Positions 27,001-59,947 of a DNA stretch of 64,000 nt are shown here, piece after piece (positions within the stretch are counted from its first letter, which is position 1; each line of letters opens with the position of its first letter). The notes under the pieces are model-generated. The model saw nothing but the letters and a program-made list of their open reading frames with translations. It ran no database searches and was not told the DNA's origin. A program made the translations under genes and the position numbers. The DNA is from a virus. Taxonomy: Duplodnaviria; Caudoviricetes. The stretch lies in IMG/VR virus record IMGVR_UViG_3300032030_000020, positions 68,670 to 132,669 of that record. The stretch is one strand, 5' to 3'.

Positions 27001-30000
27001 AGTGTTGTACCTTGAATGCTTGCAAAGGAACCAGCTTGTTTATCAATATCTGCTGCCCATGTTATTAAAGCTTGCTGAAGGAGCGCATCTTGAATTTTTT
27101 TCTCGCCGGTAACAGCATCTGTCTCCGTGGTAGCGTTAAGAATGTCTTGTGATTTTAGCTTTAAATTATTTATAACGCTTTCGACGCTACCTCCACTAAA
27201 AAGCTGATTAAGTCCAAAGTTTTCTTCCGTTTTATGTTTTTCTAATTCTTCTATCCATCCAACTTCGAATGATTTTCGATAATTGTCAATTTCAGCAACC
27301 CGTTTATCGTATTGAGATTCTGCTTTTTTAGCTGACGCCGCAAGAGTCTTCGCGTCTTTTCTTTTTTGGATCTCTTCATTTTTTATTCTTGTTTGCCACT
27401 GAAAATCTGTTTCTCCTTCACGCTGAGACTGATCATAATTTTGCATTAAATATTCATATGCTTCGTCTTCGTCTGTTAAAAATCTTCCATTTTGAACAAA
27501 CTGAGAATCGTTTTTAGCTCCGCGTAAAGCGCTAATATCCTGTTCGTATTTTCTGCGGCCCGCCTGTAATTTAGACAGCATATCGCCTTTACTGTAAAGA
27601 ATAGAATTATAGTCGTATTCTGCGGTTTTGCCCAAATTATCAATATACTCTTTTCTTAGCATAGAAAGATTAGCCATAGTTTGAATGGCTTTTCTTTGAT
27701 TAATATCAAAATCTCCAGACAACAAACTTACATCAGGAGCAGTATTCACAGTTTTTAAATACTGGTCTATTGTTTCTCTCTGCTCTAAATTGAACAAGTC
27801 GCGCAACTGATCTATATTTTGAGTGAAAGCATCAGAAGACTCAAATGAAGTATTGTGCAATTTCATACTTTGCTTATTGGCAAAACGCTGAACTTGCTGT
27901 AATGTTTCTTGATCCTTCATAAATTTGGCAACGAGATAAGATTTATCATTATCAATAAATTCGCCGTCGCCTACTTTATAGCCTGTTCTTCCTTGTAAAA
28001 CTTCTCTGTTTGTTTCACTTGTTAGGTTAGCCAAAAGTTTTTCATCCAAAACATTAGATCTATCACTAAAGAAAACATCATCTAATATCTCGTCTGGAGC
28101 ATACACAGGACGATTCGGGTCGCCTTTATCTTTTGCATCTCTTAACGGAACATTTGTTTTTAATTCGTCGTAAAACCCTGTTTTTGCAGAATGAGACAAT
28201 CTTCTCATCCCGTTATAAACTTCATCTCTAACTTCTTGTGCTTTATCTTGATTGTAACGCCAAGTAAGGATTCTTTGTTTTGGATTTTGAGCAAACATAT
28301 CAATTGCTTCAATGTTTGTTATTTTTGAATTACCCGTATCTTTATCTATAAACTGTCCAAACCATTCAAGATCTTTATCTACGGCACCATTTTGCCAATA
28401 TTGACGCCCTAACTCCTCTAGTTGTGTGGCATAGAACGCCATTTGTGCAATTGCATGCTTTTGTCCTGTTCCGCTGGATTTCCAGTCTGCGATTGTAATG
28501 TTTCCATTTTTGTCTTTCTTAATCATGTCTGGCGTGAAATACAAACCAGCTTGTCTTTCAACTGTTTGTCCGTTTGCGTCTTTTTTGTATCTTGGCATAT
28601 CAATAACTAACTGTCCATCTTGAGTCGGAACAAGCCAAACGCCATTTCCTCCTTCGGTTCGTTTGCTAATTAGCTGTTCGCCATTATCGTTATACATGAC
28701 GCCTTCGGACATAATCATGCCTTCGCCGATATGATTACGCCCTTCGTATAAAGGACCATAATAATGCTGGGCAATCTCATCCAGAGAACCATATGTTGTC
28801 TTGCCGTTAACATTACGCCGTTGACCATATGACAATTTTGCATTGAGTCGTTTTTGTGTGGCTTCGTCTGCGTGATGCGCAACGATACGACCATTTTCCA
28901 CAGAAAAAGACACTCTTGCTTGATCGCGCTCGTTTTTATGTTCATCGTCAAATAAGTAGTTTTCAAATGCTTTATACGCTTCGTTTCTTGCTTCTAAATC
29001 ATTTAAAGGATTAGCGCCTTTTCTCAGCTTACCGTATGTTTCCATAAACGTGTGAGCAGCAGAACCCAGAAAAGCATCCGCATCTATATCTGACGGAATA
29101 GTAGATCCTGTTAGAATTCTTCTTGCAATTTGCTCTCTTTGAGAAACGTGTCCTTGTTTTGTTGCATACTGCAACTCTTCAGTTTTAGGGTCAAAGCGCA
29201 TATACCCCTCTGGAGACATTTCCGATCCTGGGTGCGAAGTATCTCCACCGAAAACATCTGAATATGTTAAACCAAAAAAATCAATTGGTTTTTCCATATA
29301 TGCAGACGCATTCGACCAGTTAAAACCGGTATGTTTATATGCGGTGTGAAGCCGTTCTAACAAATATTGTCTTTGTGGATTTCCGGTTCTTCCTGTTTTG
29401 TCTCGTATTATTTCGTTAATCTGGTCTTCTTCTGCTCGCTTTCTTTCGGCTATTGCGTCTTGAGCGTTTTTCTGGAACAGAATGCGTGCAACATCACGAT
29501 CACTTTCTGAGACAAACGTGCCGTCTTTGATCGGATTGTCCCAATGCGCAAGTTCGTAGTATTTGTTAATATCGTCAAGATTGCCTTCTGTCCAACCAAG
29601 AAGCGTCTCTTGCTGAATCGCAGATCTTGCTTCGCCAAGGAGTTTGCCCATTCGTTTAGTAATCTCGCTGTTTTGATCTTTTTTATATTCGGCGTTATAT
29701 GCGTTTTGAAGCTTTGCAATCAGTTGTTCGCCTTTTTGTAAATCTTCGTTGCTAGAAATTTGGAAATTTCCAGACATTTTGTTGCCAACAAGTCCGGAAT
29801 ACCAGTCTGCTAAATCTTTTTCGGTTTGAGTTGCATTTCCAAATCTCGCTTGAATGTTGTTTGTTAAAGCTTCTCGTATGCGAGATCCATACGTCGGGTC
29901 CATATCTGCAAACATTTTTTGTGTACGCATATTTGACGTAGCTATAGCATCTATATATGTTGGCAATCCATATGCAAATATGTCCGTTGCACCAACCTTG

Positions 30001-33000
30001 TTGTTATCTTCATCGCTAAACAAAGATTGTACTAAACGCTCAATCGGCTTTCTTGTTTTTATTGCGTCGAGTGCCTTACCGGATGCTTGCGCGACTTGCA
30101 TGTCACTGTGTTTAATTAAATCAATAGCGTCGGCATATGTTTGGTTTGCGTATGCATCGACTATTCCAGCATCTTCATCGCTTAAATCTTGAGTTCTTCC
30201 GACAACTTGCCCCGCTTTGTATCCTAAACCCACGCCCCCGGTCGTAGTTTCTTGTTCAACGTTTGACGCTTCTGCGAAACTTGCACCATTTCTTGTCCCG
30301 CGCGTTTCTCCGCCTATCATTTTTTGGAGATCTTTGGCGGTTTCTCGTTCTTTCTCAATGGACTTCATGGCTTGTTGCGCATACCGATTTCTTTTCTCTG
30401 TTCTTTTTTTGAAGTCATCATCCGTTGCAAGAGCGTGGTACAACCATATAAAGTCCCCATCAAAGTCGCCAGTGTTAAGACTGTATAAGTCTTCGATGTT
30501 CATAACTGCAGCATCTGGAGACAATCCATATCTTTCTGCTGCCTTTTGCCTTCTTTGAATCGTGGCAAAGAAATTTGAACCGGCAGCATAAGGACTTCTT
30601 GTAGCGTTTGTTAAATCTTTGGTGCTTCCTCTTTGTGTAATAATTGTTCCGGTTTTTGCTTTCAGTTTTGCTGCCTCGCCTTGAGCATCGTGTCCTGTTA
30701 AATAATTTCCAACCGGATTCCATAAACTATAGGGGTTTGGTGTTGCGACAAGCATATCGGCTGGAAGCATAGCGTAGCCGCGAAGTGATTTTTCTTGCAG
30801 ATCTCTTTTTGCTCTCTGAATTTTGAATTGTATTCCACGATCAGTGTAAAGAAGGGAACTATCTTGTTGCACTCTTTTTGAATCCCTATCGTTTCCAGAA
30901 AAAAGGTAATCGATAATTCCTTCAGGAGTAGACAGTTTTTGAATTGCTTCTCGATAATTTGCTTCGGACCGTTTCATCATTTCAGGTGTGACAACAACTG
31001 AAGACATATAAGCAGGTGACCAGAATTGCTTCTTACCATAGAAACCCTCGGTATCTTTCATCAGTCGGAAACCAAAATCATATGCTGGGTTACCAGATTC
31101 ATTGAATAACTCATTTACCTGATCGGCAGTCAATGTGACAGCAGATCTGTTACTTTTAGAAGATCTGTTTTTGATCGCTGTTTTTTGATCTTCCGTTAAT
31201 CTGCTAAAGGCCGAATTGGAATTGCTCTTTGTAAGTGTTTCGGATATACTAAGAAACTCTTCCGGAGAAAGATGACTTAACGCACCTATGGATTTCACAG
31301 CGGTTTCATCGACAAGCATTTCGACGTCATCTCTCATGACGTCCACCATTCTACGATCTCGTAATTCTCTAAATTCAGCTAACTCGTCTTCTGTTAAATT
31401 GCGACGTCTATTGTTTAGCTCTTTGTATCTTGCAACTTGAGCAGCCGTTGTTCCTTGTCCAGCCATAAAAAAGTGAAGATTGTCATCGCCTTCAAACTCT
31501 TTATCTCTATAAGCGAATCCCGCATCTTCTAAGAACTTTCTCCAATCCTGATGAATTGCAAGAAATTTTGCGGGGCCCATTCTTGCCTGAACATCCTTAG
31601 AGTATGTTCTGTCATCAATTAATGCTCCGCCATCGAAACGAAATCTTTTTTCGAACTCTTGTTGCGTTTCTTTTTCGATTGCATCGTAAAACGACTTAAA
31701 ACTCACAACTGCAGCGCGCGGCGTTTTTCCTCCCAATTCCTCGATCGGAACAGAGTTTGAAAGCATTTTAGATTGATTAGAAAAATATTTTGCGTATTGT
31801 TTTACGCCTTCTTCTGAATATGGATCTATTGCCTTACCAGTTTTAGGATCTATCAGTAAATTGTTTTCGTCCGTTTCACTAAAATAAGAAAGCATTGGAA
31901 TGATCCCACGGGCTTTATCTTGCTTGATAAGAGCATCGTAGACATCTTTTCGGATCATCTTCATGCTTCCGCCGCCGGTTACGTTGGACACAGCTTTAAC
32001 ATATTCAAGATCTCCTTGATTTTCTGTACTAAGCGTTACAACGGCACCTTGATTAACTTGATCTATTAAATTTGCGTTGTCTCCGGCGAAATATGCTTTT
32101 CTTTGAGTCTTTCCTTTTAAATCTTTTTCTTCTTTGAATTTAACGTTTCCGTGCTCATCGTGTTCTCTAAAGTAATCAAGAGGCACATCGATGATCATCG
32201 GAGCGCCTTTTTTCGGAAGATTTTTTTCATCGAAGCCGTATCCAAAACTCCAATCTTCAAACTTGGCTCCGGGAGTCAATCTAATAATTCGATCTAACAG
32301 AGGGTTTCTCCCCATCGTAATCCATTCATCGTTTACGTCTTGAAATATGCCGTTTTGCTTTCTCCAATTATAATCTAATAAATGAGGATCAATATTATTC
32401 TGTCTCGGCGTTTGGACTGTAAATCGAAGTTTTCCGCCTTCATTTTGAATTGCCATACGTGGAATATTGATCATTGCAGAATTATTTAGTTTTTGAGTAA
32501 CATGTTCTTCGTCTTCGTATCGTAATCCTTGTGGGATTTGCCAGCCCTCTTTAATATATGGCATCGCGTCCGGCCTTCGATCTAACCACATTAATGTTTG
32601 AGCTTCTCTGTTTCTTTTGCTATCATTTCTCACGATAGCAGATTGATAATCAAAGTCATCAAATCTGCGGATGTATTGCGGGGCGCCTTGAGAAGCCCTT
32701 CTGGCTTTCTGAGCAACATATCCACCAAACTGATCTAATAGTGCGCCGTTGGCATCCGCAATATCGATATATTTATATTTTCCGCCGTTAACCTGTCGAA
32801 CAAGACCAGATTTGATTGCGGCTTCAAAAGCAACAGAGTTTCCTGATTCTATTTCATCTCTTATAGCGCGATAAAATTCTTCTTCCGTCGCCCTGTTGCT
32901 TGCTGGCAATTTGGGAGTTGGTTTGTCTGATTTTATTATGCGTCCACCGGACAAATAAGACGCTTTATATCTATCTGGAGCGTTATCTGTGACAATAACT

Positions 33001-37171: not shown

Positions 37172-37205
37172 AAAAAGGGGATACTGCTAGGTTGCAGTAT
37201 CCCCT
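37172..37205 (-). terminator. Intrinsic terminator after major tail gene
   Basis: GGGGATACTGC-loop-GCAGTATCCCC followed by TTTTTATTTT on the minus strand. Confidence 0.8.
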
Positions 37206-50732: not shown

Positions 50733-51059
50733 TCCACTTTATTTTTTGGCGGTTTTTCGGCCTGTTATTTAAGTTTCATTAAGAATCAGCCTAGAGAGAT
50801 TTGACGAATGAAGCAAAGCGGTTTGAGTTTCATTAACGATGGAAACAGAGAATGCAGGAAATAGAAGGGGTTGGGGAGATTGGAGAGGGGAGAGAGGGGA
50901 AACGGGGATAGGAGTTGGAAGAGAATATATATGACCTTTATGGGAGTTTGCGCAACTTTTCGACGTAAACTCCCCTTTTTTTATTTTCATGCGCTCAGCA
51001 GTGAGCTGGTCATGCCCCGAGCCGGAGACACCGGACGGTAGCCAAAGGAGGTGTAAAGC

Positions 51060-51371
51060 ATGACTTATATCGATTTTCTGCAGGCTTGCCCGCAGATGAC
51101 AGAACAGGATGCGCGTGACGCCGTGCGGTTCCTGCAGTGGCTCAATCAGCCCAAAAAGGTCACCCGGAGAACTGTACGAGTGAACTTGATCACCAAGGAG
51201 GAATGGGAACACACCCCCATCGACCTCCTTGATGGTCGAGTAATATCTGCCATTAAGGCAGAGCTGGCCCGGCAGAACCGGGAAGTTTATTGGAGTGTCA
51301 TCTCCGATAAACCGCTGGCAAGGGCCAGCGACGCCGTGGATCTTTCCAAGGCGTATCAGGTCATCATCTGA
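51060..51371 (+). CDS. Early hypothetical protein
   Basis: AAGGAGGTG RBS; 103 aa. Confidence 0.75.
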   Translation: MTYIDFLQACPQMTEQDARDAVRFLQWLNQPKKVTRRTVRVNLITKEEWEHTPIDLLDGRVISAIKAELARQNREVYWSVISDKPLARASDAVDLSKAYQVII

Positions 51372-51486
51372 TGGCCTGATTTTTTTATTTTTATGCGGAC
51401 TATCCCGCTCAGTAGTCCGTTACAAAATTATATGAGCAGTTGCGGTTTGATCAGCCGCAACACAGCGCGAAGGAGGCGCAAAAACA

Positions 51487-51690
51487 ATGTTCGAAAAGCT
51501 GAATGACTTTATCCCCGGCACGCACAACTTTGAGTTCACCATTGAGACTTCTGTTGGAAACTATATTGGCTACACGCGGTGCCTCAGCGATGCGTTTGTT
51601 GAAGCCGAATCCCTTGCGGCTTTAATGATCTATCCCCACATTGAAATTAAGTATCTCAACGGGGATTTGATCAAGGCATACGATCTGTAA
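51487..51690 (+). CDS. Early hypothetical protein
   Basis: AAGGAGG RBS; 67 aa. Confidence 0.75.
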   Translation: MFEKLNDFIPGTHNFEFTIETSVGNYIGYTRCLSDAFVEAESLAALMIYPHIEIKYLNGDLIKAYDL

Positions 51691-51754
51691 TCTTTCTGAG
51701 CCCTTCGGGGCTCTTTTTTTATTTTAACGAACGCCGAGAAAGGAGGTGCGAATC

Positions 51755-51865
51755 ATGGACCGAGAGGCCATTGAGCTTGACGTTGCTCTGGAGAGCTACG
51801 TCGATGCATGGTTTGACTTCTCCGGTATCGAGCCGGAGGAAAAGAACCACAAGGAGACCGACTAA
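51755..51865 (+). CDS. Early acidic micro-protein (36 aa, MDREAIELDVALESYVDAWFDF...)
   Basis: AGAAAGGAGGTG RBS; bounded by cassette motifs; missed by the ORF track. Confidence 0.65.
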   Translation: MDREAIELDVALESYVDAWFDFSGIEPEEKNHKETD

Positions 51866-51905
51866 GGTCTCCTTTTTTTATTTCAATGCACCAGAAAGGA
51901 GGTGT

Positions 51906-51998
51906 ATGAAGATGGCTGTGTTAATCATAGCTATCGTTCTGGTAGTAACCGGCCTGCCGGAGCTAATCCGCTACTACGCGGATTATTACAGACGGTGA
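51906..51998 (+). CDS. Early small membrane peptide (30 aa)
   Basis: AGAAAGGAGGTG RBS; hydrophobic MAVLIIAIVLVVTGL. Confidence 0.65.
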   Translation: MKMAVLIIAIVLVVTGLPELIRYYADYYRR

Positions 51999-52188
51999 AC
52001 AAAAGGCTCCTGTCCCTACCGAGTTCCTTGTATACTCGCTGGGGCGGTTGAGCCTTTTTTATTTTAACGGCCTGAGAAGGTGGCTAAAATCCTAGCCTTG
52101 AACATGGGTTGGCTCAGACGCTGAATAGCAAGCGTCCGTGTGGTTGCTACCAAGACCACGTATCAAACATAATAGGAGGAATCCCAAA

Positions 52189-52515
52189 ATGAAGAAAGCA
52201 ATCGAAACCAAAAACCTGGCCTGCGCCATCTACCCGTTCGAAGTATTTCGCAAAATTTCAGATCTTGCATACTGGGGCGAGGATTTGGACCACATCACCG
52301 CAATCGACGGCGAGCTGGCGGAAAAAGTTGCCGCCAAGGACAATGTCCAGATTTCTGGATCATTGACCTCCGGTGTACTCTACATATTCCACTGGAACAA
52401 AGCAGGAACCAAGCTGGTTCCACTTCATGTGTCAATGAAGCCGAAGACGGCTGCAAACATAGAAAATGGAAGTCGTCGCTATGGCAGCGGCGCCATTCTG
52501 AACGAATTGTTCTAA
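52189..52515 (+). CDS. Early hypothetical protein
   Basis: AGGAGG RBS before ATG 52189. Confidence 0.75.
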   Translation: MKKAIETKNLACAIYPFEVFRKISDLAYWGEDLDHITAIDGELAEKVAAKDNVQISGSLTSGVLYIFHWNKAGTKLVPLHVSMKPKTAANIENGSRRYGSGAILNELF

Positions 52516-52668
52516 TCCACAACTAGGAGCTCCAGAAATGGAGCTCTTTTTTTATTTTAACGGCGGCTCGGATAGACGAGCATATTAACCCTGCAACTGG
52601 GTAATAATAGGTTGCCACCGTCCTGCATCTGGTACCGCAGGATACGGTTGAATAAGAAAGGAGGTACC

Positions 52669-52923
52669 ATGAAAAAGTCTTATGAAAGTTTCCGCCACAG
52701 CTTCAGCTTTGAGGAGGCACTGGCCCATACGTCCTGCGCTTCCGTGGGCGCTATGATGGAGACGTATGATGTCTCCGTCAGCGCCCCCTGGGCTGAGGCC
52801 GTGCTGGTCACCCTGACGCCCCGGGAGGGCGTCACTGAGGACGACCCCGTCCTTGGAGCTGGTTGGGATACCGTCGAGGAGGAATTCCTCGGTTGTGTAG
52901 CCGAGGTCAACGCTGAGCGCTGA
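52669..52923 (+). CDS. Early acidic hypothetical protein
   Basis: AAAGGAGGT RBS before ATG 52669. Confidence 0.7.
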   Translation: MKKSYESFRHSFSFEEALAHTSCASVGAMMETYDVSVSAPWAEAVLVTLTPREGVTEDDPVLGAGWDTVEEEFLGCVAEVNAER

Positions 52924-53021
52924 TCCGGCACGTCTTTGGAGCAAGACGTTAAACATGCTCCTTTTTTTATTTTTACGCGGACTATTGGTCATAGTTCGAC
53001 AAAAAAGAAGGAGGTGTTCCT

Positions 53022-53378
53022 ATGAACATCACGACCATCGTTATCCTGCTGGCGCTGTTGGAGGAGCTGCCGGAGCTCCCCGAGCACGCGCGTGCTAATC
53101 GTCGTGCCAACCGGGAAAAAGCCATCCGTCACAATCGTAAAACATACCACAATCTCGTAGGAAACGGGATTTGGTATGAAAACCAGGACGAAAATGGTGA
53201 TTTTGTTGCATATCACCGCAGCAAGGTTACCAATAAGTACCAGAAGGGACGTTGGGAAACTGAACGCCTTTCTGGACACAGAAGATTTCAGAAGTGGAGT
53301 CGGGATTACTATCCCAGCTTCACAGACGAAAAAGCCACACGGCGCTGGAATGAAGAACTGAAAGAGTTCTTCGATTAA
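53022..53378 (+). CDS. Early basic hypothetical protein
   Basis: AAGGAGGTG RBS; 118 aa. Confidence 0.75.
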   Translation: MNITTIVILLALLEELPELPEHARANRRANREKAIRHNRKTYHNLVGNGIWYENQDENGDFVAYHRSKVTNKYQKGRWETERLSGHRRFQKWSRDYYPSFTDEKATRRWNEELKEFFD

Positions 53379-53473
53379 TCAATTAAAGGAGAGTTTGCTG
53401 GCTCTCCTTTTTTTATTTTTTACGGCAGCGGAAGCTGACCAAATAACCCGCATAGCGGGAACGGAGGTGCCAT

Positions 53474-53698
53474 ATGTCTAAGATTAACTCTTACACTGTA
53501 TTCAGCAGCGAACACGGCGTCACCACCATTGCGGAAATTACCGAATACTTCCGCAACGGAGACATCGTCACGGTAGAAGAATACCATTTCTGCCGCAACA
53601 ACGTTGAGTTCGGCTGGGCTCGTGTCCAGTCCGATGATCAGCACCGCCGCGTTGTCGGCGACAAGGAGCTGCTGGAGCGGTTCCAACTGATCGCGTAA
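53474..53698 (+). CDS. Early hypothetical protein
   Basis: GGAGGTG RBS; 74 aa. Confidence 0.75.
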   Translation: MSKINSYTVFSSEHGVTTIAEITEYFRNGDIVTVEEYHFCRNNVEFGWARVQSDDQHRRVVGDKELLERFQLIA

Positions 53699-53791
53699 CC
53701 CTTTTTGAAACCGGCGAGCGTGGCTTGACCATGCGACGACCCGGTTTCTTTTTTTATTTTTTATGACCACAAAAAGAAAGGATGTGATTGT

Positions 53792-54283
53792 ATGTGGGTG
53801 GAACCCATGGTTATTCAAAGGGCAAGAGTCGACTCCTTAGCAACAAAATTGACTCGTCCGCACGACTTCTACGTCAACTGCGGCGGCCACGCCTTTGGTG
53901 TGGATGGCTGGTATATACCGGCCGATAAGGAGGATCTGTTTCAAGACTTCTACACAGCCCGCAACAACAAAGGCGGCTGGAGAAGTCTTGAAAGAAAGTT
54001 CGTAAAGAACATCCTTCGCGACTTTCCGGGGCTCAAATTGCTGAAAAAAGAAAGTGTTGACAACGTGTCTGTCGATCTGGACAGATACGAAATCATCGCC
54101 TTTCGTATCCGGCGAACCGCCGTTTTCGCAGATTATCATTTTATGAGATGCGAAAAGAATGGAGATTGGACGGAAAAGCGAGGATCGAGAAGAGACATAT
54201 TCCGTTATAACTACGAAGACATCTACGATGTCTGGGGAGAGTATGACGGTAAATTATACTTCTTCGTAAGGGAGCGTCGTTAA
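53792..54283 (+). CDS. Early protein with possible papain-like catalytic motifs
   Basis: NCGGHAF...DYHFMR...WTEKRG. Confidence 0.6.
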   Translation: MWVEPMVIQRARVDSLATKLTRPHDFYVNCGGHAFGVDGWYIPADKEDLFQDFYTARNNKGGWRSLERKFVKNILRDFPGLKLLKKESVDNVSVDLDRYEIIAFRIRRTAVFADYHFMRCEKNGDWTEKRGSRRDIFRYNYEDIYDVWGEYDGKLYFFVRERR

Positions 54284-54429
54284 CGGCGTTCCCTTTTTGT
54301 TTTTTATGGCAGCCGGAAAGTACGGCCGGGTTGCTGGTGGACGCTAAGCATCAGCCGGGGTAAGGCACGGAAGCCTGTATTACGTCCTGCTTGTAATCTC
54401 CATATGCAAGCAGAGAAGGAGGTACATTT

Positions 54430-54657
54430 ATGGAGAAGTACACCATTATCGTCGACGGAAAAGAAACCGAAGTTGTCCTGATCGGGCGCGAACTCGATTG
54501 CAATCAGAGAGACCTTGAAGAATACCTGACGGGTTACCGGGGATCTTTCTTCGACGAGGTCTGGATGGACCCCATCACCAAAAAGTGCTACACCGAAGGA
54601 TACCTGCGCGGTTGGCACGAGTACGACGGCAAATACGCCGTTCAGTACGTTCGCTAA
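54430..54657 (+). CDS. Early hypothetical protein
   Basis: AAGGAGGT RBS; 75 aa. Confidence 0.75.
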   Translation: MEKYTIIVDGKETEVVLIGRELDCNQRDLEEYLTGYRGSFFDEVWMDPITKKCYTEGYLRGWHEYDGKYAVQYVR

Positions 54658-54748
54658 CCAAAGAGCCAGTCTTATGACTGGCTCCTTTTTTATTTTCTTG
54701 ACGGCATAAGCCGATCAATCGTCCACGAGACGTTAAAGGAGGATTCTT

Positions 54749-54997
54749 ATGAGTATCGAGATCACCATGGAAAACGTATTCGACCTGTTTATGGAACACG
54801 ACTTCCCTTGGTTTGAATTCTTGAACGACATGGAAGAGCCAAAAGCTTTGCTAACGATCAGCAGCGTTTCGAAAACAATCGTAACTACGATATTAATCGT
54901 AGACTCTGCCGACATCAGCAACAACGCATATACTTTCTGCTTGGAAACTAGAGAATATATGAAAGCAGGAGAACTGAAAACAGTAGATATACCGTAA
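54749..54997 (+). CDS. Early hypothetical protein
   Basis: AAAGGAGG RBS; 82 aa. Confidence 0.7.
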   Translation: MSIEITMENVFDLFMEHDFPWFEFLNDMEEPKALLTISSVSKTIVTTILIVDSADISNNAYTFCLETREYMKAGELKTVDIP

Positions 54998-55096
54998 GCA
55001 TTTCAAACTGGAGCAAAAGCTCCAGTTTTTTATTTTTTATGGCGACTGTGCCGAAAGGCTAAATTCAACAGTCGTCAAAGAAAGGAGATATGAGCT

Positions 55097-55423
55097 ATGA
55101 CTAAGGAAATGACGAACAAACTAACAAAAAACTCGAAGTACCTTGAGGTAGAAGATTTTAGTTATGACATCTTTACTGTATCAATCTTCTATTTCTGCGG
55201 AATGTTTTGTATTGACGTGTTTGGCGGTCGGGACGACGAAGAAGTGTATTTCTTCGGCACTGGATTTGACAAAGACCACTTCTACGGAGGATTTGAAACG
55301 GCCATAAAAGTCGCCCTCGAAGACATCCGCAAAAGTAATGCAGAGATCAAAATCAAAAAGATTGCAGAATCTGCTTTAGCCAGAGCCTGTGTTGAATTTC
55401 ATCTGAAACATCACTCAAAATGA
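55097..55423 (+). CDS. Early hypothetical protein
   Basis: AAAGGAG RBS; 108 aa. Confidence 0.7.
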   Translation: MTKEMTNKLTKNSKYLEVEDFSYDIFTVSIFYFCGMFCIDVFGGRDDEEVYFFGTGFDKDHFYGGFETAIKVALEDIRKSNAEIKIKKIAESALARACVEFHLKHHSK

Positions 55424-55495
55424 AACCTAAAACGACCAAAACTCGGCCACATCAAACAGGTGTGGCAGAAAATGTAAAAGGAGAGTGAAACAAAA

Positions 55496-55783
55496 ATGAC
55501 TCGTTGGTGGAACGCAGACGACCAGCTCGAACAGAACTTGCTTGACTGGTTCGGCAACGAAAATCTTAGTAGCTGGCTGACTAGATGCTACGAGATCTTT
55601 GTAGGATCGCAGGATGTAAAAGAAGTGACATTCTGCTTGAAAAATGGCGAATGCAGCTGGAATATTCATTATTCTGATCATTGGTGTTTCCCGGCCGGTT
55701 CCCATAGCTGCAGATCGGCATACGATATTCTAATCGGCTTCAAATCCATAATGGAAGATCCAAAGAAATACAGGCAATGGTGA
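55496..55783 (+). CDS. Early hypothetical protein
   Basis: AAAGGAG RBS; 95 aa. Confidence 0.7.
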   Translation: MTRWWNADDQLEQNLLDWFGNENLSSWLTRCYEIFVGSQDVKEVTFCLKNGECSWNIHYSDHWCFPAGSHSCRSAYDILIGFKSIMEDPKKYRQW

Positions 55784-55978
55784 ATCACCAAAAAGGAGAG
55801 TCTTTATGGCTCTTCTTTTTTTATTTTCACGGAACGGCTACCCGGCCGTCTCTTGGCAAACATCCTGCGGTTGACCACGCAGGTAGGGTGTGGTGTTGGT
55901 CATCCGTCGCGCTCACGAAACGAGCGGCATGCTAGTCCGGCATGACAACCTACAACAAGACTGAAAGGAGACACGACA

Positions 55979-58771
55979 ATGAAGGAACAGATCATGGAGA
56001 CAAAAGCGCAGGCCCTGTACGGTACTCTGAAGCTGAAGATGGCGGAACTGGAGACCGCCAAGGAAACACTGACCAAACTGACTGCTGACCGTCAGCCCGG
56101 AGAACATGGTGCCCGCCGGTCTATCCGCCGCGCAGAGAAGGAGCTGGAAGCGGCTCAGGCTGCTTACAACGACGCTTACAAAGCCTACAAAGCGGAGAAC
56201 TCCGCCGCGTGGGCTGAGTATAAGAACGAGAAGGAGGACAAGAAGATGAACGACACTGGACTTCAGAAGATCGACAGATATGTCGTGGCTGAAAGCAAGA
56301 CGGAGGAGATCACGATCTTCTCCAGCGCTGCCACCCGGCATATCATCGAGATGGGCCATGCTGTGAGAGACAGCGTGGTCAAGATCAAGTCGGAGTGCAA
56401 GGACACTCTGGCTATGGACTATGCCCACGCGGAAATGGTGCATTATTGCGCCAAGGGCTTCAGCAAGGACGGAAAGCGGTTCGTTCCGCTGATCGTGGCC
56501 GCGTCCGACCATCGGAAGGCGACAGCCACATGGATGGATGACCAGATCGCCGCCGCCTACTGGAAGTGGTCGATGTGCGGACTGACCCTGCCGGAGATCT
56601 CCGGGAAGATCGCCGTCAATAAGTATATGGCGTATCAGGGTCTCATGTGGTCGGCTTCCAAGAAGTTCAAGGAAGTGTTCGGCATCGAAATCGACCCGGC
56701 CCGAATCGCCGTGGTGAAGGACGGCTTCGTCGAAGTCACCGGCATCATGGACGTGGTGCACGACGACGGCACGGTCGAACACGCCGTGGAACGCACGATT
56801 ACGATCAATGCGTTCGACGGGCAGGGTTCAATGAGAGCTACCCTGTCCAGTGGTGAGTCCGTGACCATCCGGGCTCCGTGGATGAAGGCATTCGTGCAGG
56901 CCTGCAACTGGGATGAAGTGATTGAATACTTCACGAAGGTAAAGGGCGATACTAAGATCCAGACCATCTACGGAGAGAAGGACCTGCAGGACATCGATAT
57001 CGTCCTGACGGTGTCCTGCTTCAAGGCCGCCAAGCTGTACGACTCTTGGGAGAAGTACGAGAAGGCTTTCCGTGAACTGGGACACGAAGTCTGCGTCTGT
57101 GTCCGGGAGCATCAGCCGAAGCTGAAGGGCATGCCCTATCAGCAGGGACAGACGCTGCAGGGAACGGACGAAGACGTTGAGAAGTTCGCTCAGCACAGCC
57201 TGATGACTGTCTCCAAGTACGAGAACCAGAAGGAAGCTGTGAAGCTCCTTCGTGGGTATCACAGGGCTGCGGCAAAGCTGTATCCGGCCATGATGAAGGA
57301 AGGATACACCGCCCGGACCATGCAGGAGAAGTACACTTCTCTGAAGATGGAAATGCTCGGTGGCCGCATCCCGGAACTTGGCTACAATGCCTTCGGTGCA
57401 GCTGACATCAAAGCGTTCTGGGAACACGTGGCTGGACAGCCGATCGTTGGCTGCCTGAAGGCCGGTGAGTGCAGCCTGCTCCTGCATAAGGAAGGGCTGA
57501 CCGACGTGACGCGGTCTCCGCATCTGGACAACGCCCACGTTCTTCTGTACAACGTACGGAAGATGCCGTTCGTACCGGAGAAGAGCCCGACACTCTTCGT
57601 GAACATCTGGGATCTGACCACCATTCAGCTCAGGTGTGACTACGACGGCGACCACTTCTGGTACAGCCAGAACGCCAATCTGCTTGATCTGATTAAGAGG
57701 ACGTATGAAGTCCTGAAGAACCTGCCGATCGACTGGGAGGCACCGGAATCCACGAAAGGTGTCATCAACAGGACGACGATCAGCGAGTTCGTGTCCAACC
57801 TGCTGAAGGGCAGCGAAATCGGCCTGTATGCCGATGCACTGACCAAGATGTGGGCGAACGGCTATAATCATGACGTCTGCTGCTGGCTGACCTATGCTGG
57901 CAACGTGCTGATCGATGCCGCAAAGCACGGTAACGTAAAGATCGAGAAGCCGGACGCTGTGAAGGCCGTGGACTCAATGTCTCTGCCTGAGTTCTGCATG
58001 TACGCGAAAGCAGACAAAGAGCATCCCGCCGGTTCCAAGTACTGGACGGAAGAGCGCTTCGTCTGCGTCGACGAGCAGAAGCACAAGAAGACCGTGTATG
58101 CTTCCGAGTACAACGAGAAGAAGCACGGCACGATCAAGACCGTGCTGAAGCCCCGGACGCAGTACTCTGGCAGCTTCCTCGACAAATTCAGCCGCCGTGT
58201 GAAGGCACTCGTGCCCGACACTCTGGTGGTGAATGGGCTGGACGAGGAGATCTTCGACGTCACAGTCATGCTGATTAACCCGAAGCGGATAATCGGCAAG
58301 CTGGCTGGCCTGTCCAAGAAGGCGTCCAGCTACAACGACACCACCGGAAAGTACGAGGATGAGGGTGGCCTGTTCCAGCAGATCGCCTTCCGTCAGTCTG
58401 CCGAGTGGAAGGAACTCATCAACTACGACGAGTTCAAACTCGACTACAAGGCGTGGGAAGACGCCAAGGCCGAGTCCGCCCGTCAGGAGATGATCGCATG
58501 GGCTCGGGCGAAGTACGAAGGCAACGCCGTTGTCGCGGGGTACAGCGATGAGCAGATTCTGGAAGGAATCTACGACATCGTAACCCGCAACATGTTCGGA
58601 CCGGCCAAAGTATCCGATGGATACGACACGGTCGTGAAGAGCGCCTACTGGCGGATCTTCGGCAAGATGGCCTGCGACGTCATCGCCGACAATCTGGGTG
58701 AAGAAGCCCTGAGCTTCGACCCCCGGCTGGACGACGACCTCGGCGATGTCGATGGCGCCGAAGACTGCTAA
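55979..58771 (+). CDS. Single-subunit two-barrel RNA polymerase, YonO/QDE-1-like
   Basis: F-D280-G-Q-G; I-R298-APWM-K303; R512-S-P-H; C-D554-Y-D-G-D; C-terminal IGxxxD...IDAAKHG motifs typical of this family. Confidence 0.88.
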   Translation: MKEQIMETKAQALYGTLKLKMAELETAKETLTKLTADRQPGEHGARRSIRRAEKELEAAQAAYNDAYKAYKAENSAAWAEYKNEKEDKKMNDTGLQKIDRYVVAESKTEEITIFSSAATRHIIEMGHAVRDSVVKIKSECKDTLAMDYAHAEMVHYCAKGFSKDGKRFVPLIVAASDHRKATATWMDDQIAAAYWKWSMCGLTLPEISGKIAVNKYMAYQGLMWSASKKFKEVFGIEIDPARIAVVKDGFVEVTGIMDVVHDDGTVEHAVERTITINAFDGQGSMRATLSSGESVTIRAPWMKAFVQACNWDEVIEYFTKVKGDTKIQTIYGEKDLQDIDIVLTVSCFKAAKLYDSWEKYEKAFRELGHEVCVCVREHQPKLKGMPYQQGQTLQGTDEDVEKFAQHSLMTVSKYENQKEAVKLLRGYHRAAAKLYPAMMKEGYTARTMQEKYTSLKMEMLGGRIPELGYNAFGAADIKAFWEHVAGQPIVGCLKAGECSLLLHKEGLTDVTRSPHLDNAHVLLYNVRKMPFVPEKSPTLFVNIWDLTTIQLRCDYDGDHFWYSQNANLLDLIKRTYEVLKNLPIDWEAPESTKGVINRTTISEFVSNLLKGSEIGLYADALTKMWANGYNHDVCCWLTYAGNVLIDAAKHGNVKIEKPDAVKAVDSMSLPEFCMYAKADKEHPAGSKYWTEERFVCVDEQKHKKTVYASEYNEKKHGTIKTVLKPRTQYSGSFLDKFSRRVKALVPDTLVVNGLDEEIFDVTVMLINPKRIIGKLAGLSKKASSYNDTTGKYEDEGGLFQQIAFRQSAEWKELINYDEFKLDYKAWEDAKAESARQEMIAWARAKYEGNAVVAGYSDEQILEGIYDIVTRNMFGPAKVSDGYDTVVKSAYWRIFGKMACDVIADNLGEEALSFDPRLDDDLGDVDGAEDC

Positions 58772-58854
58772 CCCAACCGACAGGGAGACTGGTTTCGACC
58801 AGTCTCCTTTTTTTCACGCAAACGAGAGTCTAGCAAAGAAAGGAGAACGGAACT

Positions 58855-59250
58855 ATGTACAATATTATTTACAAAAACGACGAGGGGATGAACTTCGTCT
58901 ACCGCTGCTCCGACGAGAAGCAGCGTGACCACTTCGTTTCTATCCTAACGAACGCCGGGATTGAGTACGATGTAAGGGAAACGACCGACGAGATGTATTA
59001 CCAGATCTGCGGCTGCCTTTTCAGGTCTGACGGTCAGATGTACACATTCGTCAGGCACGAAGGAGACGCAAAACCCGGCATGTCAGCCGCTGCTGTTGTC
59101 AAAGACTCCTACGGACATGAATCCACCAAGGAAGTAATAATCGTTGATACGAGAAAAGCTTCTGAGTCTGAAATTCACGCCATTGCGCGTGGACTCGGGT
59201 ATAAAGAGCTCGGTAGCATTGAGCGTGTCTGGCAGCGCAAATTAGCATAA
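58855..59250 (+). CDS. Hypothetical protein
   Basis: AAAGGAG RBS; 131 aa; last gene of the cassette array. Confidence 0.75.
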   Translation: MYNIIYKNDEGMNFVYRCSDEKQRDHFVSILTNAGIEYDVRETTDEMYYQICGCLFRSDGQMYTFVRHEGDAKPGMSAAAVVKDSYGHESTKEVIIVDTRKASESEIHAIARGLGYKELGSIERVWQRKLA

Positions 59251-59349
59251 CCAAAATCTGAGTCAGCCGAAAGGCTGGCTCTTTTTTTATTTACGCGACC
59301 GCTAGAGACGCTGCTCTTTAGCGATCCAACACAATGGGGCCCACCCCAT

Positions 59350-59389
59350 TTTTTGCGGCCCCACCTTTTTCTGCGGCCCCCATTTTTTC
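59350..59389. repeat. Paired T-run/GCGGCCCC repeats (second pair at 60566-60604)
   Basis: TTTTTGCGGCCCC and TTTTTCTGCGGCCCCC here; TTTTTGTGCGGCCCC and TTTTTTCGCGGCCCC at 60566-60597. Confidence 0.7.
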
Positions 59390-59947
59390 ACTTCGTTCAA
59401 GTTACAATGCTCTAAAGGTCGCTTACGCTGGCTTGATAAAGATGAAACTGTTTCTCCAATGTTTCGGGTGCTGTCCCGGGGCGTGGGGTTCCTTGTTTCT
59501 TGAGCTCGTTTGTGCGGTTCCCGGGGCTCGGGACGGAAGTTTCTGTGCTTCGTGGCCGCTGACGCTCGCTTGATACCTATGAAGGATTCGTCCTTCCGCA
59601 GAGTGCGACTGCGTTACAAATCGCATATCAGGCGTCGCTCGATGAGTTTATGCGCCGAGTTCGTCTGGGTACACGTTACTGCCCACCATAGGGTCAGTCC
59701 GTCATTTGCACGGCGGCTGACGGCTTGACGGTAGCGAGCTAAAACCGTTCCTACTGACGCGGAGTCGAAAAAGGAGATACAGCCGATTGTGCAATAGGCT
59801 TGTATTGAGTGTAAGTAGCCGCGTGAGGCCAGCCAGTGCCGCGAGTAAGAAACTGGCATTCCCATAGTTGGTCTAAGCCGGTCGCTGACGCTGGCTTGAT
59901 ATTTATGAGACTGCGGTCTCGACAAATTTGAAAGGAGACTTTGTCCG

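Follow-up and report, generated by a model that had tools for sequence, protein, structure and literature searches.

What do the 15 repeated elements do that separate the genes of an 8.4-kb + strand block (50942-59295) in an uncultured, rumen-type phage? The block consists of one-gene units, and each element is composed of a variable GC-rich hairpin, a T-tail of the form T6-7-A-T3-6, and A(C/T)G (AYG below). Such an element could end one transcript, start the next, or do both. The window analyzed was a stretch of 64,000 nt from a genome of 132,669 bp (133 kb, 99% complete), and positions below are those of the window. Judged from its sequence, the phage is a distant relative of SPbeta. Coordinates of the elements and of the two polymerase genes are collected in Table 1.

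Table 1. Elements of the array and polymerase genes in the window
Feature	Position	Strand	Description
Element 1	50942-50991	+	hairpin 50942-50974, T7AT4 50976-50987, ATG 50989-50991; no + strand gene upstream
Family-wide 16-mer	50954-50969	+	in the loop of element 1
Element 2	51356-51395	+	hairpin, T7AT5, ATG; then 94-nt leader, 87-95% identical in three relatives
Element 3	51698-51729	+	hairpin with UUCG loop, T7AT4, A, ACG
Element 4	51853-51888	+	hairpin, T7AT3, CA, ATG
Element 5	52004-52069	+	extended hairpin (outer stem GGCTC...GAGCC), T6AT4, A, ACG
Element 6	52527-52562	+	hairpin, T7AT4, A, ACG
Element 7	52938-52977	+	hairpin, T7AT5, ACG; hairpin and leader homologous to L001 9171-9267
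Element 8	53388-53424	+	hairpin, T7AT6, ACG; L001 and L003 homology begins at T-tail
Element 9	53707-53765	+	long hairpin, T7AT6, ATG
Element 10	54270-54308	+	hairpin, T5GT6 (G replaces A), ATG
Element 11	54663-54703	+	hairpin, T6AT4, CTTG, ACG; longest spacer
Element 12	55008-55041	+	hairpin, T6AT6, ATG; strong 5ʹ hairpin next
Element 13	55795-55831	+	hairpin, T7AT4, C, ACG; opens 150-nt leader of free polymerase gene
Element 14 (short variant)	58783-58818	+	hairpin 58783-58807, T7 58808-58814, C, ACG 58816-58818; no interrupting A
Element 15	59260-59295	+	hairpin with GAAA loop, T7AT3, ACG
Free-standing (non-virion) YonO-type two-barrel RNA polymerase gene	55979-58771	+	930 aa, DYDGD at aa 554; Pfam PF05183
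Tape measure protein	12063-33791	-	7242 aa; PhageMin_Tail domain aa 2507-2715
Candidate virion RNA polymerase domain of tape measure	29292-31994	-	aa 600-1500, N-terminal

Anatomy and confinement of the element

Elements stood at 15 of the 16 + strand gene boundaries in the array, with 55423/55496 as the sole exception, which bears out the claim of the sequence-only reading that 15 copies delimit the cassettes. In the window, TTTTTATTTT occurred 13 times against 0.9 expected, and 11 of these were + strand copies within 50978-55827. The pattern TTTTTATTT-N0-4-AYG was matched 12 times against 0.30 expected, a number reached in none of 100 shuffles, and all 12 matches were on the + strand between 50978 and 59295. 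Three variant copies bring the total to 15: 54294 (G for A), 54686 (CTTG spacer) and 58808-58818 (T7-C-ACG), the last of which shows that one site can do without the interrupting A-T4 part. Of the 14 copies with an interrupting purine, 12 had a distance of 8-9 nt from A to G; the fixed geometry noticed earlier was confirmed, while the count given for it (13 of 15) was not.

All 15 copies were preceded by a hairpin. For the 13 copies that were scored, using a 45-nt MFE fold, dG was about -8 to -21 kcal/mol; the other two hairpins (stem 58783-58807 and extended stem 52004-52054) were judged partly by eye. Stem length varied between 5 and more than 12 bp and loop length between 3 and 17 nt. By sequence the hairpins fell into about 31 types with no relation to one another, and 16 of 27 four-base loops were UUCG or GNRA, the tetraloops typical of RNA. 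A canonical terminator requires just the first 7-9 U's. The first seven T's of the tail are what any terminator requires, and this counts against reading them as a promoter.

The element was confined to this one block within the whole genome. With one strict finder, a long T-tail with AYG was found at none of 22 other terminator-like sites of the genome versus 9 of 13 array sites, and among control terminators of distant relatives 4 of 48 had it. A minus-strand terminator, at 37176, lacks AYG, as had been described. Leaders in the array are 20-210 nt long and open with a hairpin, and 13 strong hairpin+U7 sites stand in series 5ʹ of the free polymerase gene, which itself lies within the array.

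A separate promoter-like motif, GGGACATTCGAAAA-N4-ACGTA-N2-GGGA, was present nine times genome-wide and never inside the array. It heads all transcription units outside the array, is family-wide, and is kept in relatives that have no array.

Conservation and exchange among related phages

In 49 of 51 elements from five phages, the pattern was T(-13..-7), A(-6 or -7), T(-5..-2), A(0), Y(+1), G(+2) and non-T(+3), and A(0) was placed 12-14 nt past the first tail T in 42 of the 49. Among close relatives the T-tail and AYG were kept amid the 31 or so types of hairpin and some 40 types of unrelated leader. A stable hairpin started 1-5 nt past A(0) in 29 of 48 elements, versus a mean of 11.8 in shuffles (maximum 19 in 200) and 6.5 in random genome windows. 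An RNA 5ʹ end at A(0) would predict a stable hairpin just downstream, as was observed.

Comparison of the related phages agreed with the earlier suggestion that genes are shuffled at the repeats: homology is interrupted at the T-tails, and hardly any of the small genes are orthologous. Matches between phages begin exactly at the T-tail and extend 50-165 nt through the leader. For example, 51381-51480 matched L001 (95%), L003 (87%) and L004 (88%), and no protein similarity was detectable between the gene that follows and its counterparts in these three. Other matches span the hairpin and tail alone; the hairpin and tail of element 15, followed by about 500 nt with no clear ORF, were 97% identical in L003 and L031. 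At recombinant junctions, the upstream gene retains its hairpin, and the downstream gene brings its T-tail and leader along.

The first copy, correctly described before as having no upstream gene to terminate, was kept in L001 and L004, and compensatory changes separate its hairpin in the window from that in L001. The L001 copy stands at the front of a 696-nt cassette that has no ORF and a folding z of -4.0.

Relatives without the array (L005-L017, L032 and L033) had few or no such elements. The T-tail array was limited to a subclade whose tape-measure polymerase domain resembles the present one, as in P0128, a 5714-aa protein with 41% identity (on a contig of 122,370 bp, equal in length to the L004 record); this co-variation covers one clade and two array-bearing genomes with a known tape measure. 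In the five array-less records examined, the tape-measure domains were far more diverged, while the identity of the free polymerase was 48-50% for array-less records versus 52% for L004. All five array-less records with an examinable tape measure also carry DxDGD in it, indicating that polymerase fusion does not require the T-tail motif.

Candidate polymerases and the reading of the element

The free polymerase matched Pfam PF05183 above cut-off (E 3e-7) and had 160 metagenomic homologues. In SPbeta-like phages it matched, by tblastn, an 841-aa gene adjoining the divergent region (E 2e-33). The tape measure gene has Dit and Tal genes downstream. Its N-terminal domain holds invariant FDGG, R-x4-K, TRSPY and GDFDGDF in the order and spacing of the free polymerase, and matches by BLASTP (E 0.001) and, weakly, by hhalign (E 0.0035, probability 9%) also point to a polymerase. 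A language model gave a further lead, with PF05183 present in 28 of the 30 named ESM clusters nearest to the domain. Sequence searches of Pfam, PHROGs and PDB with the domain were empty, and its AF2 model was of poor quality. From the motif order and these matches, we regard the domain as a candidate virion RNA polymerase.

On the mechanism that we consider fairly probable, based on the sequence and on analogy, the element would be a two-part punctuation mark for the first transcripts of the phage. The GC-rich hairpin and first U's would act in RNA as an intrinsic terminator of the upstream one-gene unit, and the same T-rich DNA, T6-7-A-T3-6 (about 13 nt), would be the promoter of the next unit, where RNA synthesis would begin at the conserved A of A-Y-G. 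The transcript would form its 5ʹ stem-loop at once, to be followed by the leader, the SD sequence and the gene. Of the possible readers, the N-terminal two-barrel polymerase domain of the injected tape measure is the most likely; it would transcribe the whole 8.4-kb block, including the YonO-type polymerase gene; this second polymerase would probably serve the GGGACATTCGAAAA-type motif. The T-tail also doubles as the joint for exchange of gene cassettes, because it is the only sequence common to all units.

A terminator joined to a phage-specific promoter at A(C/T)G, with the tape-measure polymerase as reader, had been put forward in the sequence-only reading. It gained indirect support from the fixed geometry, the 5ʹ hairpins right after the A, the mobile modules of T-tail and leader, the first copy with no target, the separate motif class elsewhere and the mapped precedent of phage P23-45. 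The sequence demonstrates the anatomy with its statistics, its conservation and the recombination joints; the start site, the termination and the acting polymerase are what we infer.

The elements could instead be terminators only, with a lineage-specific extended tail tuned to a phage polymerase or a host enzyme. Promoters would then be located elsewhere, perhaps just one at the start of the cluster, and expression would drop along the array by partial read-through. Their GC-rich stems abutting 6-7 T's and their UUCG or GNRA loops are those of textbook RNA terminators, a conserved terminator motif is likewise peculiar to the pre-early region of P23-45, and array-less relatives cope with few or no such elements. 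What makes this unlikely is that it leaves unexplained the AYG fixed 12-14 nt past the stem, well beyond the release zone, across all those unrelated leaders, as well as the 5ʹ hairpin directly after the A and the first copy; moreover, 13 strong terminators in series would allow almost no read-through to an essential polymerase gene. Similar read-through would be required if the elements were punctuation for RNA processing or stability, in which a host endonuclease cuts a long early transcript in the U-rich linker, and the 3ʹ hairpin guards the upstream piece and the 5ʹ hairpin the downstream piece. The order of 3ʹ hairpin, single-stranded U-rich linker and 5ʹ hairpin fits such a role; RNase III cleaves T7 early mRNA in a parallel way, and 5ʹ-proximal hairpins stabilize mRNA in Bacillota. 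The confinement of a DNA-level T-tail with AYG to one polymerase-defined subclade, and the ORF-less first cassette of L001, where the element is the sole upstream feature, would however have no explanation, and we hold processing to be quite improbable as the main role. It could coexist with promoter function.

Promoters for other readers are less probable still. Host RNA polymerase reads early genes in many phages, SPbeta among them, and TATTTT, which retains A2 and T6 of TATAAT, could be a -10-like box used with the upstream T-tract by the host sigma-A holoenzyme. There is, however, no TG extension and no conserved -35, because the -35 position lies in the variable hairpin arm, and AYG comes 1-2 nt past the hexamer versus about 7 expected. 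In agreement with the earlier remark that convincing -35/-10 boxes were missing, a scan for sigma-70-like promoters returned 8 against 10.6 expected, none at a usable intergenic position. The motif is lineage-specific though these phages share SD-type hosts, so that we consider host recognition very unlikely. No sigma factor gene was found in the genome. Least likely of all, if only slightly, is an N4-type promoter, with the hairpin extruded in DNA and recognized by the virion polymerase. A hairpin does precede every copy at a fixed distance to AYG, including the first copy with its compensatory changes. The diversity of the stems and loops, the RNA-stabilizing tetraloops and the retention of the hairpin by the upstream gene at recombinant junctions all speak against it, and this part of the original proposal is not supported.

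Comparison with known systems

The elements resemble canonical intrinsic (Rho-independent) terminators in the GC-rich stem-loop followed directly by 6-7 U's and in the common tetraloops, and differ by adding an invariant distal A-T3-6, with AYG 12-14 nt past the stem. N4 virion RNAP promoters have a short conserved stem and a 3-nt loop with specific bases. They share with the present array early genes, a hairpin upstream of the start and an injected polymerase (proposed here), whereas the present hairpins are RNA-like and lack conservation, which resides in the T-tail instead.

The free polymerase is a homologue of YonO of SPbeta (SPbeta/YonO system: Forrest et al. 2017, PMC5467207), and structural genes of the relatives match Pfam YonB and YonG_N. 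The polymerase gene is a few small genes from the divergent region, where the packaging start is located in SPbeta. We know of no polymerase-fused tape measure described in SPbeta. Packaging in SPbeta is of the headful type and starts at a pac site, so the argument that early genes enter the cell first is one that we infer. Around yonO in SPbeta, neither a T-tail array nor the ATTCGAAAA motif is present.

The Thermus phage P23-45 has a tape-measure-fused virion RNAP, gp96, and a non-virion RNAP, gp64 (Chaban et al. 2024, PMC10770324). The former initiates at a T-rich TTATTCCTTT-A (PMC10770324 Supplementary Data 1), from at least 14 starts that precede small ORFs at intervals of 250-400 bp, as far as the second polymerase gene. 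Several of its mapped terminators are situated 6-23 nt ahead of the following start, and the T-tract of the first terminator doubles as a promoter (PMC10770324). Both phages combine a giant tape measure, whose N-terminal part contains a two-barrel polymerase domain with DxDGD (a candidate here), with a free polymerase gene that comes last in a row of small ORFan genes. They further share a short T-rich motif abutting the initiating A and then Y-G (start mapped in P23-45, proposed here), units closed by a hairpin and T terminator 6-49 nt before the next start, overlapping in some P23-45 units, and a second polymerase with a motif class of its own (probable here). No sequence similarity to gp96 or gp64 was detectable (PDB searches empty), and the free polymerase of the present phage is YonO-type. 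The motif is T7-A-T4-6-AYG here and TTATTCCTTTA in P23-45; terminator fusion is the rule here (15/15) and the exception there. Most transcripts of P23-45 lack a leader and begin with the A of their start codon, in contrast to the leaders of 20-210 nt here, and the conserved 26-nt terminator motif of P23-45 differs from the variable hairpins of the present array. The layout was mapped by experiment in P23-45 and is known here from sequence.

PeSLs (promoter-early stem-loops) of T4-like phages (Arbiol et al. 2010, PMC2839356; Comeau et al. 2014, PMC4122927) bear host sigma-70 early promoters, while the present elements have no -35/-10 boxes, the present phage supplies its own polymerases, and sequence and phage family are unrelated. 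PeSLs are nevertheless also small composite terminator/promoter motifs flanking ORFan early genes in hyperplastic regions, and they are the points at which unrelated genes are swapped between related phages, the same pattern as in the present array.

A composite element at the boundaries of early genes

The early gene cluster carried 15 copies of a composite element on the + strand between 50942 and 59295, made up of a hairpin, a T6-7-A-T3-6 tail (T-tail) and the trinucleotide A(C/T)G (AYG), and 15 of its 16 gene boundaries were occupied. The core TTTTTATTT-N0-4-AYG matched 12 times against 0.30 matches expected, and none of 100 shuffled sequences reached 12. All 12 matches were on the + strand inside the array block; variant elements are listed in the table. 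The array described by the sequence-only reading of this DNA was thus seen and was highly non-random. Two further statements of that reading also held: no -35/-10 pair was associated with the elements, and the first element had nothing upstream to terminate.

A hairpin was found ahead of all 15 copies, with dG of about -8 to -21 kcal/mol in the 13 copies scored by folding. The window forms the final 64 kb of a single virus record of 132,669 bp, rated 99% complete by CheckV; this record was searched in full, and the element was absent from the rest of it. When terminator-like sites were collected with one strict finder, the long T-tail with AYG was present at 9 of 13 array sites and at none of the 22 other sites in the genome. 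Even two very small genes formed cassettes (one-gene units between two elements), each with its own element and SD sequence.

To describe the element across phages, we compared the window with four related contigs and aligned 49 of their 51 elements on the A of AYG, designated A(0). The consensus was T(-13..-7), A(-6 or -7), T(-5..-2), N, A(0), Y, G and then non-T, and A(0) was 12-14 nt past the first tail T in 42 of the 49. The flanks were mostly unrelated, with about 31 types of hairpin and about 40 types of leader (the stretch from A(0) to the next gene start), so the conservation of T-tail and AYG does not reflect simple shared descent. UUCG or GNRA made up 16 of the 27 four-base hairpin loops, suggesting that the hairpins act in RNA, as terminators, and arguing against recognition of DNA hairpins as in phage N4. 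A second hairpin began 1-5 nt past A(0) in 29 of 48 elements, compared with a mean of 11.8 in shuffled sequences (maximum 19 in 200) and 6.5 in random genome windows. If an RNA 5' end lay at this A, such a hairpin would be expected. The next start codon followed A(0) by 19-212 nt.

Coordinates of features in the window, in the whole genome where stated, and in related contigs
Feature	Position	Strand	Remarks
Variant element	54294	+	interrupting A replaced by G
Variant element	54686	+	CTTG spacer ahead of ACG
Variant element, short form	58808-58818	+	T7-C-ACG
Small cassette gene	51756-51866		about 36 aa
Small cassette gene	51908-51998		about 29 aa, hydrophobic
Free polymerase gene	55979-58771	+	930 aa, DYDGD; between elements 13 and 14
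Packaging, head and tail genes	from 50629 downwards	-	terminase, portal, 7242-aa tape measure, Dit, Tal
..TCTGGTGGGGACATTCGAAAA-N4-ACGTATAGGGAAAAG sites	window 50731, 39060, 11984 (-), 60610 (+); genome 15522, 25028, 32479, 41064 (+)		
16-mer	50954-50969	+	head of early cluster
16-mer in relatives	L001 6295; L003 4313; L004 8175/8510		also in L005-L017, L032, L033
Polypurine tract	50800-50925		about 100 nt, rich in G-runs
G/C cluster + T-run blocks	59334-59390		three in tandem, ORF-poor, past last element
GCTGACGCT(G/C)GCTTGATA-N3-ATGA repeats	59421-59450, 59557-59590, 59715-59745, 59880-59910, 63014; genome 1296	+	
Array copies in relatives			L001, 12 (one with a T4-C-T7 tail); L003, 12-13; L031, 9; L004, 4-5

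Related phages and sites around the array

Contigs whose free polymerase, a YonO-type enzyme encoded inside the array, was 52-62% identical to the present one shared its tail and AYG and had different hairpins. The array was absent from relatives in which this identity was 50% or less, and also from two contigs, L032 and L033, at 54-56%. The first element was kept in L001 and L004. Between array-bearing phages, blastn matches started exactly at the T-tail and extended through the leader; other matches were confined to hairpin and tail. The leader module at 51381-51480 reached identities of 95%, 87% and 88% to three phages, well above the polymerase gene at 66-71%, and the protein encoded downstream of it had no detectable similarity to its counterparts in these three. 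BLASTP (E <= 1e-4) gave a match for only 4 of the 14 small ORFs among the seven relatives compared. HSP ends fall at the T-tails. The composite motif flanks variable ORFans and acts as a joint for recombination, as do the promoter-early stem-loops (PeSLs) of T4-like phages. Gene shuffling at the repeats had been proposed from the sequence, and the comparison of related phages at element boundaries located the exchange joints exactly there.

Two candidate RNAs stood out, one here and one in L001. The 94-nt leader at 51393-51486 contains two hairpins, is 87-95% identical in L001, L003 and L004, and may serve as an RNA leader module for regulation or stabilisation. The first cassette of L001 (6325-7020, 696 nt) had no credible ORF and folded at -214.5 kcal/mol (z = -4.0). 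It had no Rfam match, and possibly encodes a phage ncRNA that has a T-tail element and a terminator to itself. In Rfam searches, neither the window nor the early regions of the relatives matched a known RNA family.

None of the eight small genes searched, out of 14, matched a PHROG family, and neither megablast of the region nor tblastn of the tape-measure N-terminus matched an isolated phage. Searching IMG/VR with a single tape-measure fragment found no relatives, and a search with the conserved leader pattern found one unrelated-looking match, L034. The search of genome contigs for a host returned a single 9.7-kb MAG contig.

Several other sites were observed around the array. A nearly invariant 16-mer, AAACTTTTCAGCGTAAA (AACTTTTCGACGTAAA here), was present in one or two copies throughout the family, array-less members included. 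It was a single copy in this whole genome, and lay in the loop of the first hairpin here and in L001. We ruled out that it is the same motif as the T-tail, as the shared part is only T4-C-A. Between the terminase operon and the array is a polypurine tract (GGGGTTGGGGAGATTGGAGAGGGGAGAGAGGGG...), and in L032 and L033 similar tracts separate the two copies of the 16-mer. The 16-mer may be a pac/terminase site or a primary promoter. SPbeta packages by headful from a site adjoining yonO, and the counterpart of that site may be the 16-mer together with the polypurine tract with which the array begins. The idea that the array is first to enter the cell would be speculative. Past the last element, three blocks of a G/C cluster and a T-run (GGGGCCCACCCCATTTTTT, GCGGCCCCACCTTTTT, GCGGCCCCCATTTTTT) have analogues in L032 and L033. 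The GCTGACGCT(G/C)GCTTGATA-N3-ATGA repeats were found on the + strand only, just past the array and ahead of the next genes, with look-alikes ahead of genes in the same two relatives. They may be a third class of promoter or operator, or origin iterons.

A free polymerase, a likely tape-measure polymerase and two motif classes

The free polymerase matched Pfam RdRP above the cut-off and was a homologue of YonO (E 2e-33 to SPbeta-like phages); a profile search of PDB with its alignment gave no match. As in Thermus phage P23-45, this second polymerase gene is encoded inside the motif-bearing block. The AT-rich motif of the present array is highly non-random, and start sites immediately downstream of it are predicted. 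At 55979-56246 the free polymerase is extended in frame by a coiled coil of about 90 aa, which was missing from the homologues of roughly 800 aa. An SD sequence and ATG at 56247 coincided with the usual free-polymerase start, so two protein forms are possible.

The tape measure contained a PF10145 TMP domain (E 4e-29). Its residues 720-1113 included FDGG, R-x4-K, TRSPY and GDFDGDF, invariant in seven homologues of 4989-7242 aa and matching the invariant residues of the YonO-type family in order and spacing. The nearest named ESM-atlas clusters to this domain were PF05183 in 28 of 30 cases. It had no match in Pfam, PHROGs or PDB sequence searches, and the homology statistics were weak (BLASTP E 0.001, hhalign probability 9%). 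An AF2 model of residues 600-1500 from a 7-row alignment had a mean pLDDT of 49, too poor to use. The motifs indicate that the tape measure likely carries an N-terminal two-barrel DxDGD RNAP domain, as in P23-45, of weak homology and unconfirmed fold. Because of these statistics and the poor model, we regard the virion polymerase as likely but short of proof.

A second motif, GGGACATTCGAAAA-N4-ACGTA-N2-GGGA, which had been noted from the sequence at four sites, was found in 9 copies genome-wide and in none inside the array. In both arms its orientation was invariably that of the genes downstream, and it was kept in all relatives, array-less ones among them. A form of about 40 nt, ..TCTGGTGGGGACATTCGAAAA-N4-ACGTATAGGGAAAAG, headed transcription units in both arms, and is a candidate for the promoter of the free polymerase.

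The free polymerase was conserved family-wide (48-62% identity) and the tape-measure polymerase domain was not. In the L004 phage, this domain is very probably that of P0128, a protein encoded on a 122,370-bp ENA contig, with 41% identity to the present domain. In five array-less IMG/VR records, the DxDGD domains were beyond the reach of phmmer from the present one and were linked via intermediates only. The pairing of a conserved motif with the conserved enzyme, and of a lineage-specific motif with the fast-diverging enzyme, fits the assignment of motifs to polymerases; this co-variation comes from one clade and is weak evidence. We rejected a tie between the array and a polymerase-fused tape measure as such, since array-less relatives also have DxDGD tape measures; the domain type, not the fusion itself, co-varies with the array. 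In the distant, array-less relatives L026-L030 (IMG/VR G001-G005), the tape-measure frames were open over 4637-5665 aa and contained D(F/Y/E)D(G/A)D between aa 900 and 1050. Judged from such frames, the fusion of polymerase and tape measure extends through the whole family, with very fast divergence of the polymerase part.

Interpretation of the element and comparison with known systems

We infer that the element is probably a terminator fused to a promoter of the virion polymerase, with a predicted start at A(0), predicted termination and the tape-measure enzyme as its putative user. In all 15 copies a GC-rich hairpin abuts 6-7 T's, as in intrinsic terminators, and the elements could be terminators only. 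This is doubtful, because it accounts neither for the distal AYG and the 5' hairpins nor for the first copy, and leaves unexplained how a polymerase gene could be expressed downstream of 13 strong terminators. Punctuation for RNA processing would account for both hairpins and may coexist with promoter activity; it requires read-through, and we regard it as improbable.

The two other kinds of promoter considered fit the elements poorly. Host promoters are very improbable, since the geometry is wrong and there is no -35: hexamers at -35 and -10 with 16-18 nt spacing and a start about 7 nt past -10, as for sigma-A, were not found in the elements, and no sigma factor gene was found in the 99%-complete genome. 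The sequence-only reading had suggested that the hairpin might be recognised as in N4. This was not upheld and now has hardly any probability, because the hairpins are too variable: instead of a conserved short stem-loop there were about 31 unrelated types of variable length, in which UUCG and GNRA loops dominated.

Within the reading as a fused terminator and promoter, we tentatively propose an obligate stop-and-restart, a possibility to which we give limited weight. The virion polymerase would be tethered to the tape-measure pore while DNA threads past, so that the U-tract DNA at which RNA is released would be the next promoter, and the same molecule would re-initiate 6-8 nt downstream without leaving the template. 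The U7 gene junctions of rhabdoviruses and paramyxoviruses follow a similar logic. If it is true, the one-gene cassettes would be freely exchangeable plug-ins for host takeover.

To our knowledge, a two-polymerase relay with a tape-measure-borne enzyme is known by experiment only from Thermus phages, and the promoter of YonO-type polymerases is still poorly defined. If our reading is true, the relay would extend to a large family of SPbeta-like phages of about 130 kb in rumen-type communities. It gives a precise and testable promoter prediction, T7-A-T4-6 with the start at A-Y-G, and a companion prediction for the YonO-type polymerase, ATTCGAAAA-N4-ACGTA-N2-GGGA. Strict overlap of terminator and promoter, together with one-gene cassettes, would let host-takeover genes be swapped with regulation undisturbed. 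Short orthogonal promoter/terminator pairs for use with compact single-chain polymerases could also be useful parts for synthetic biology.

Cassette swapping is alike in the PeSLs of T4-like phages (PMC4122927, PMC2839356), whereas the host sigma-70 early promoter within the PeSL motif was not found in the present elements. Another parallel is P23-45, in which the tape-measure-fused polymerase starts at a T-rich TTATTCCTTT-A, as mapped by ChIP-seq and ONT-cappable-seq. The starts precede about 14 small genes that lie at one end of the genome and reach as far as the second polymerase gene, whose product uses another motif (PMC10770324). By analogy, the present array is the P23-45 design with a different motif. 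The present proteins have no detectable sequence similarity to the P23-45 polymerases gp96 and gp64 (none at E <= 1 by phmmer and profile search of all PDB chains), so we file the phage as working like P23-45 and not as a member of its protein families. P23-45 transcripts are mostly leaderless, starting at the A of the start codon, whereas the transcripts predicted here have leaders; the hairpins of the present array are not conserved, in further difference from P23-45. Mapped terminators of P23-45 lie 6-49 nt ahead of the next start, and at TTS1/TSS2 the hairpin T-tract itself is the promoter (PMC10770324). In the present array, such overlap of terminator and promoter would be the rule.
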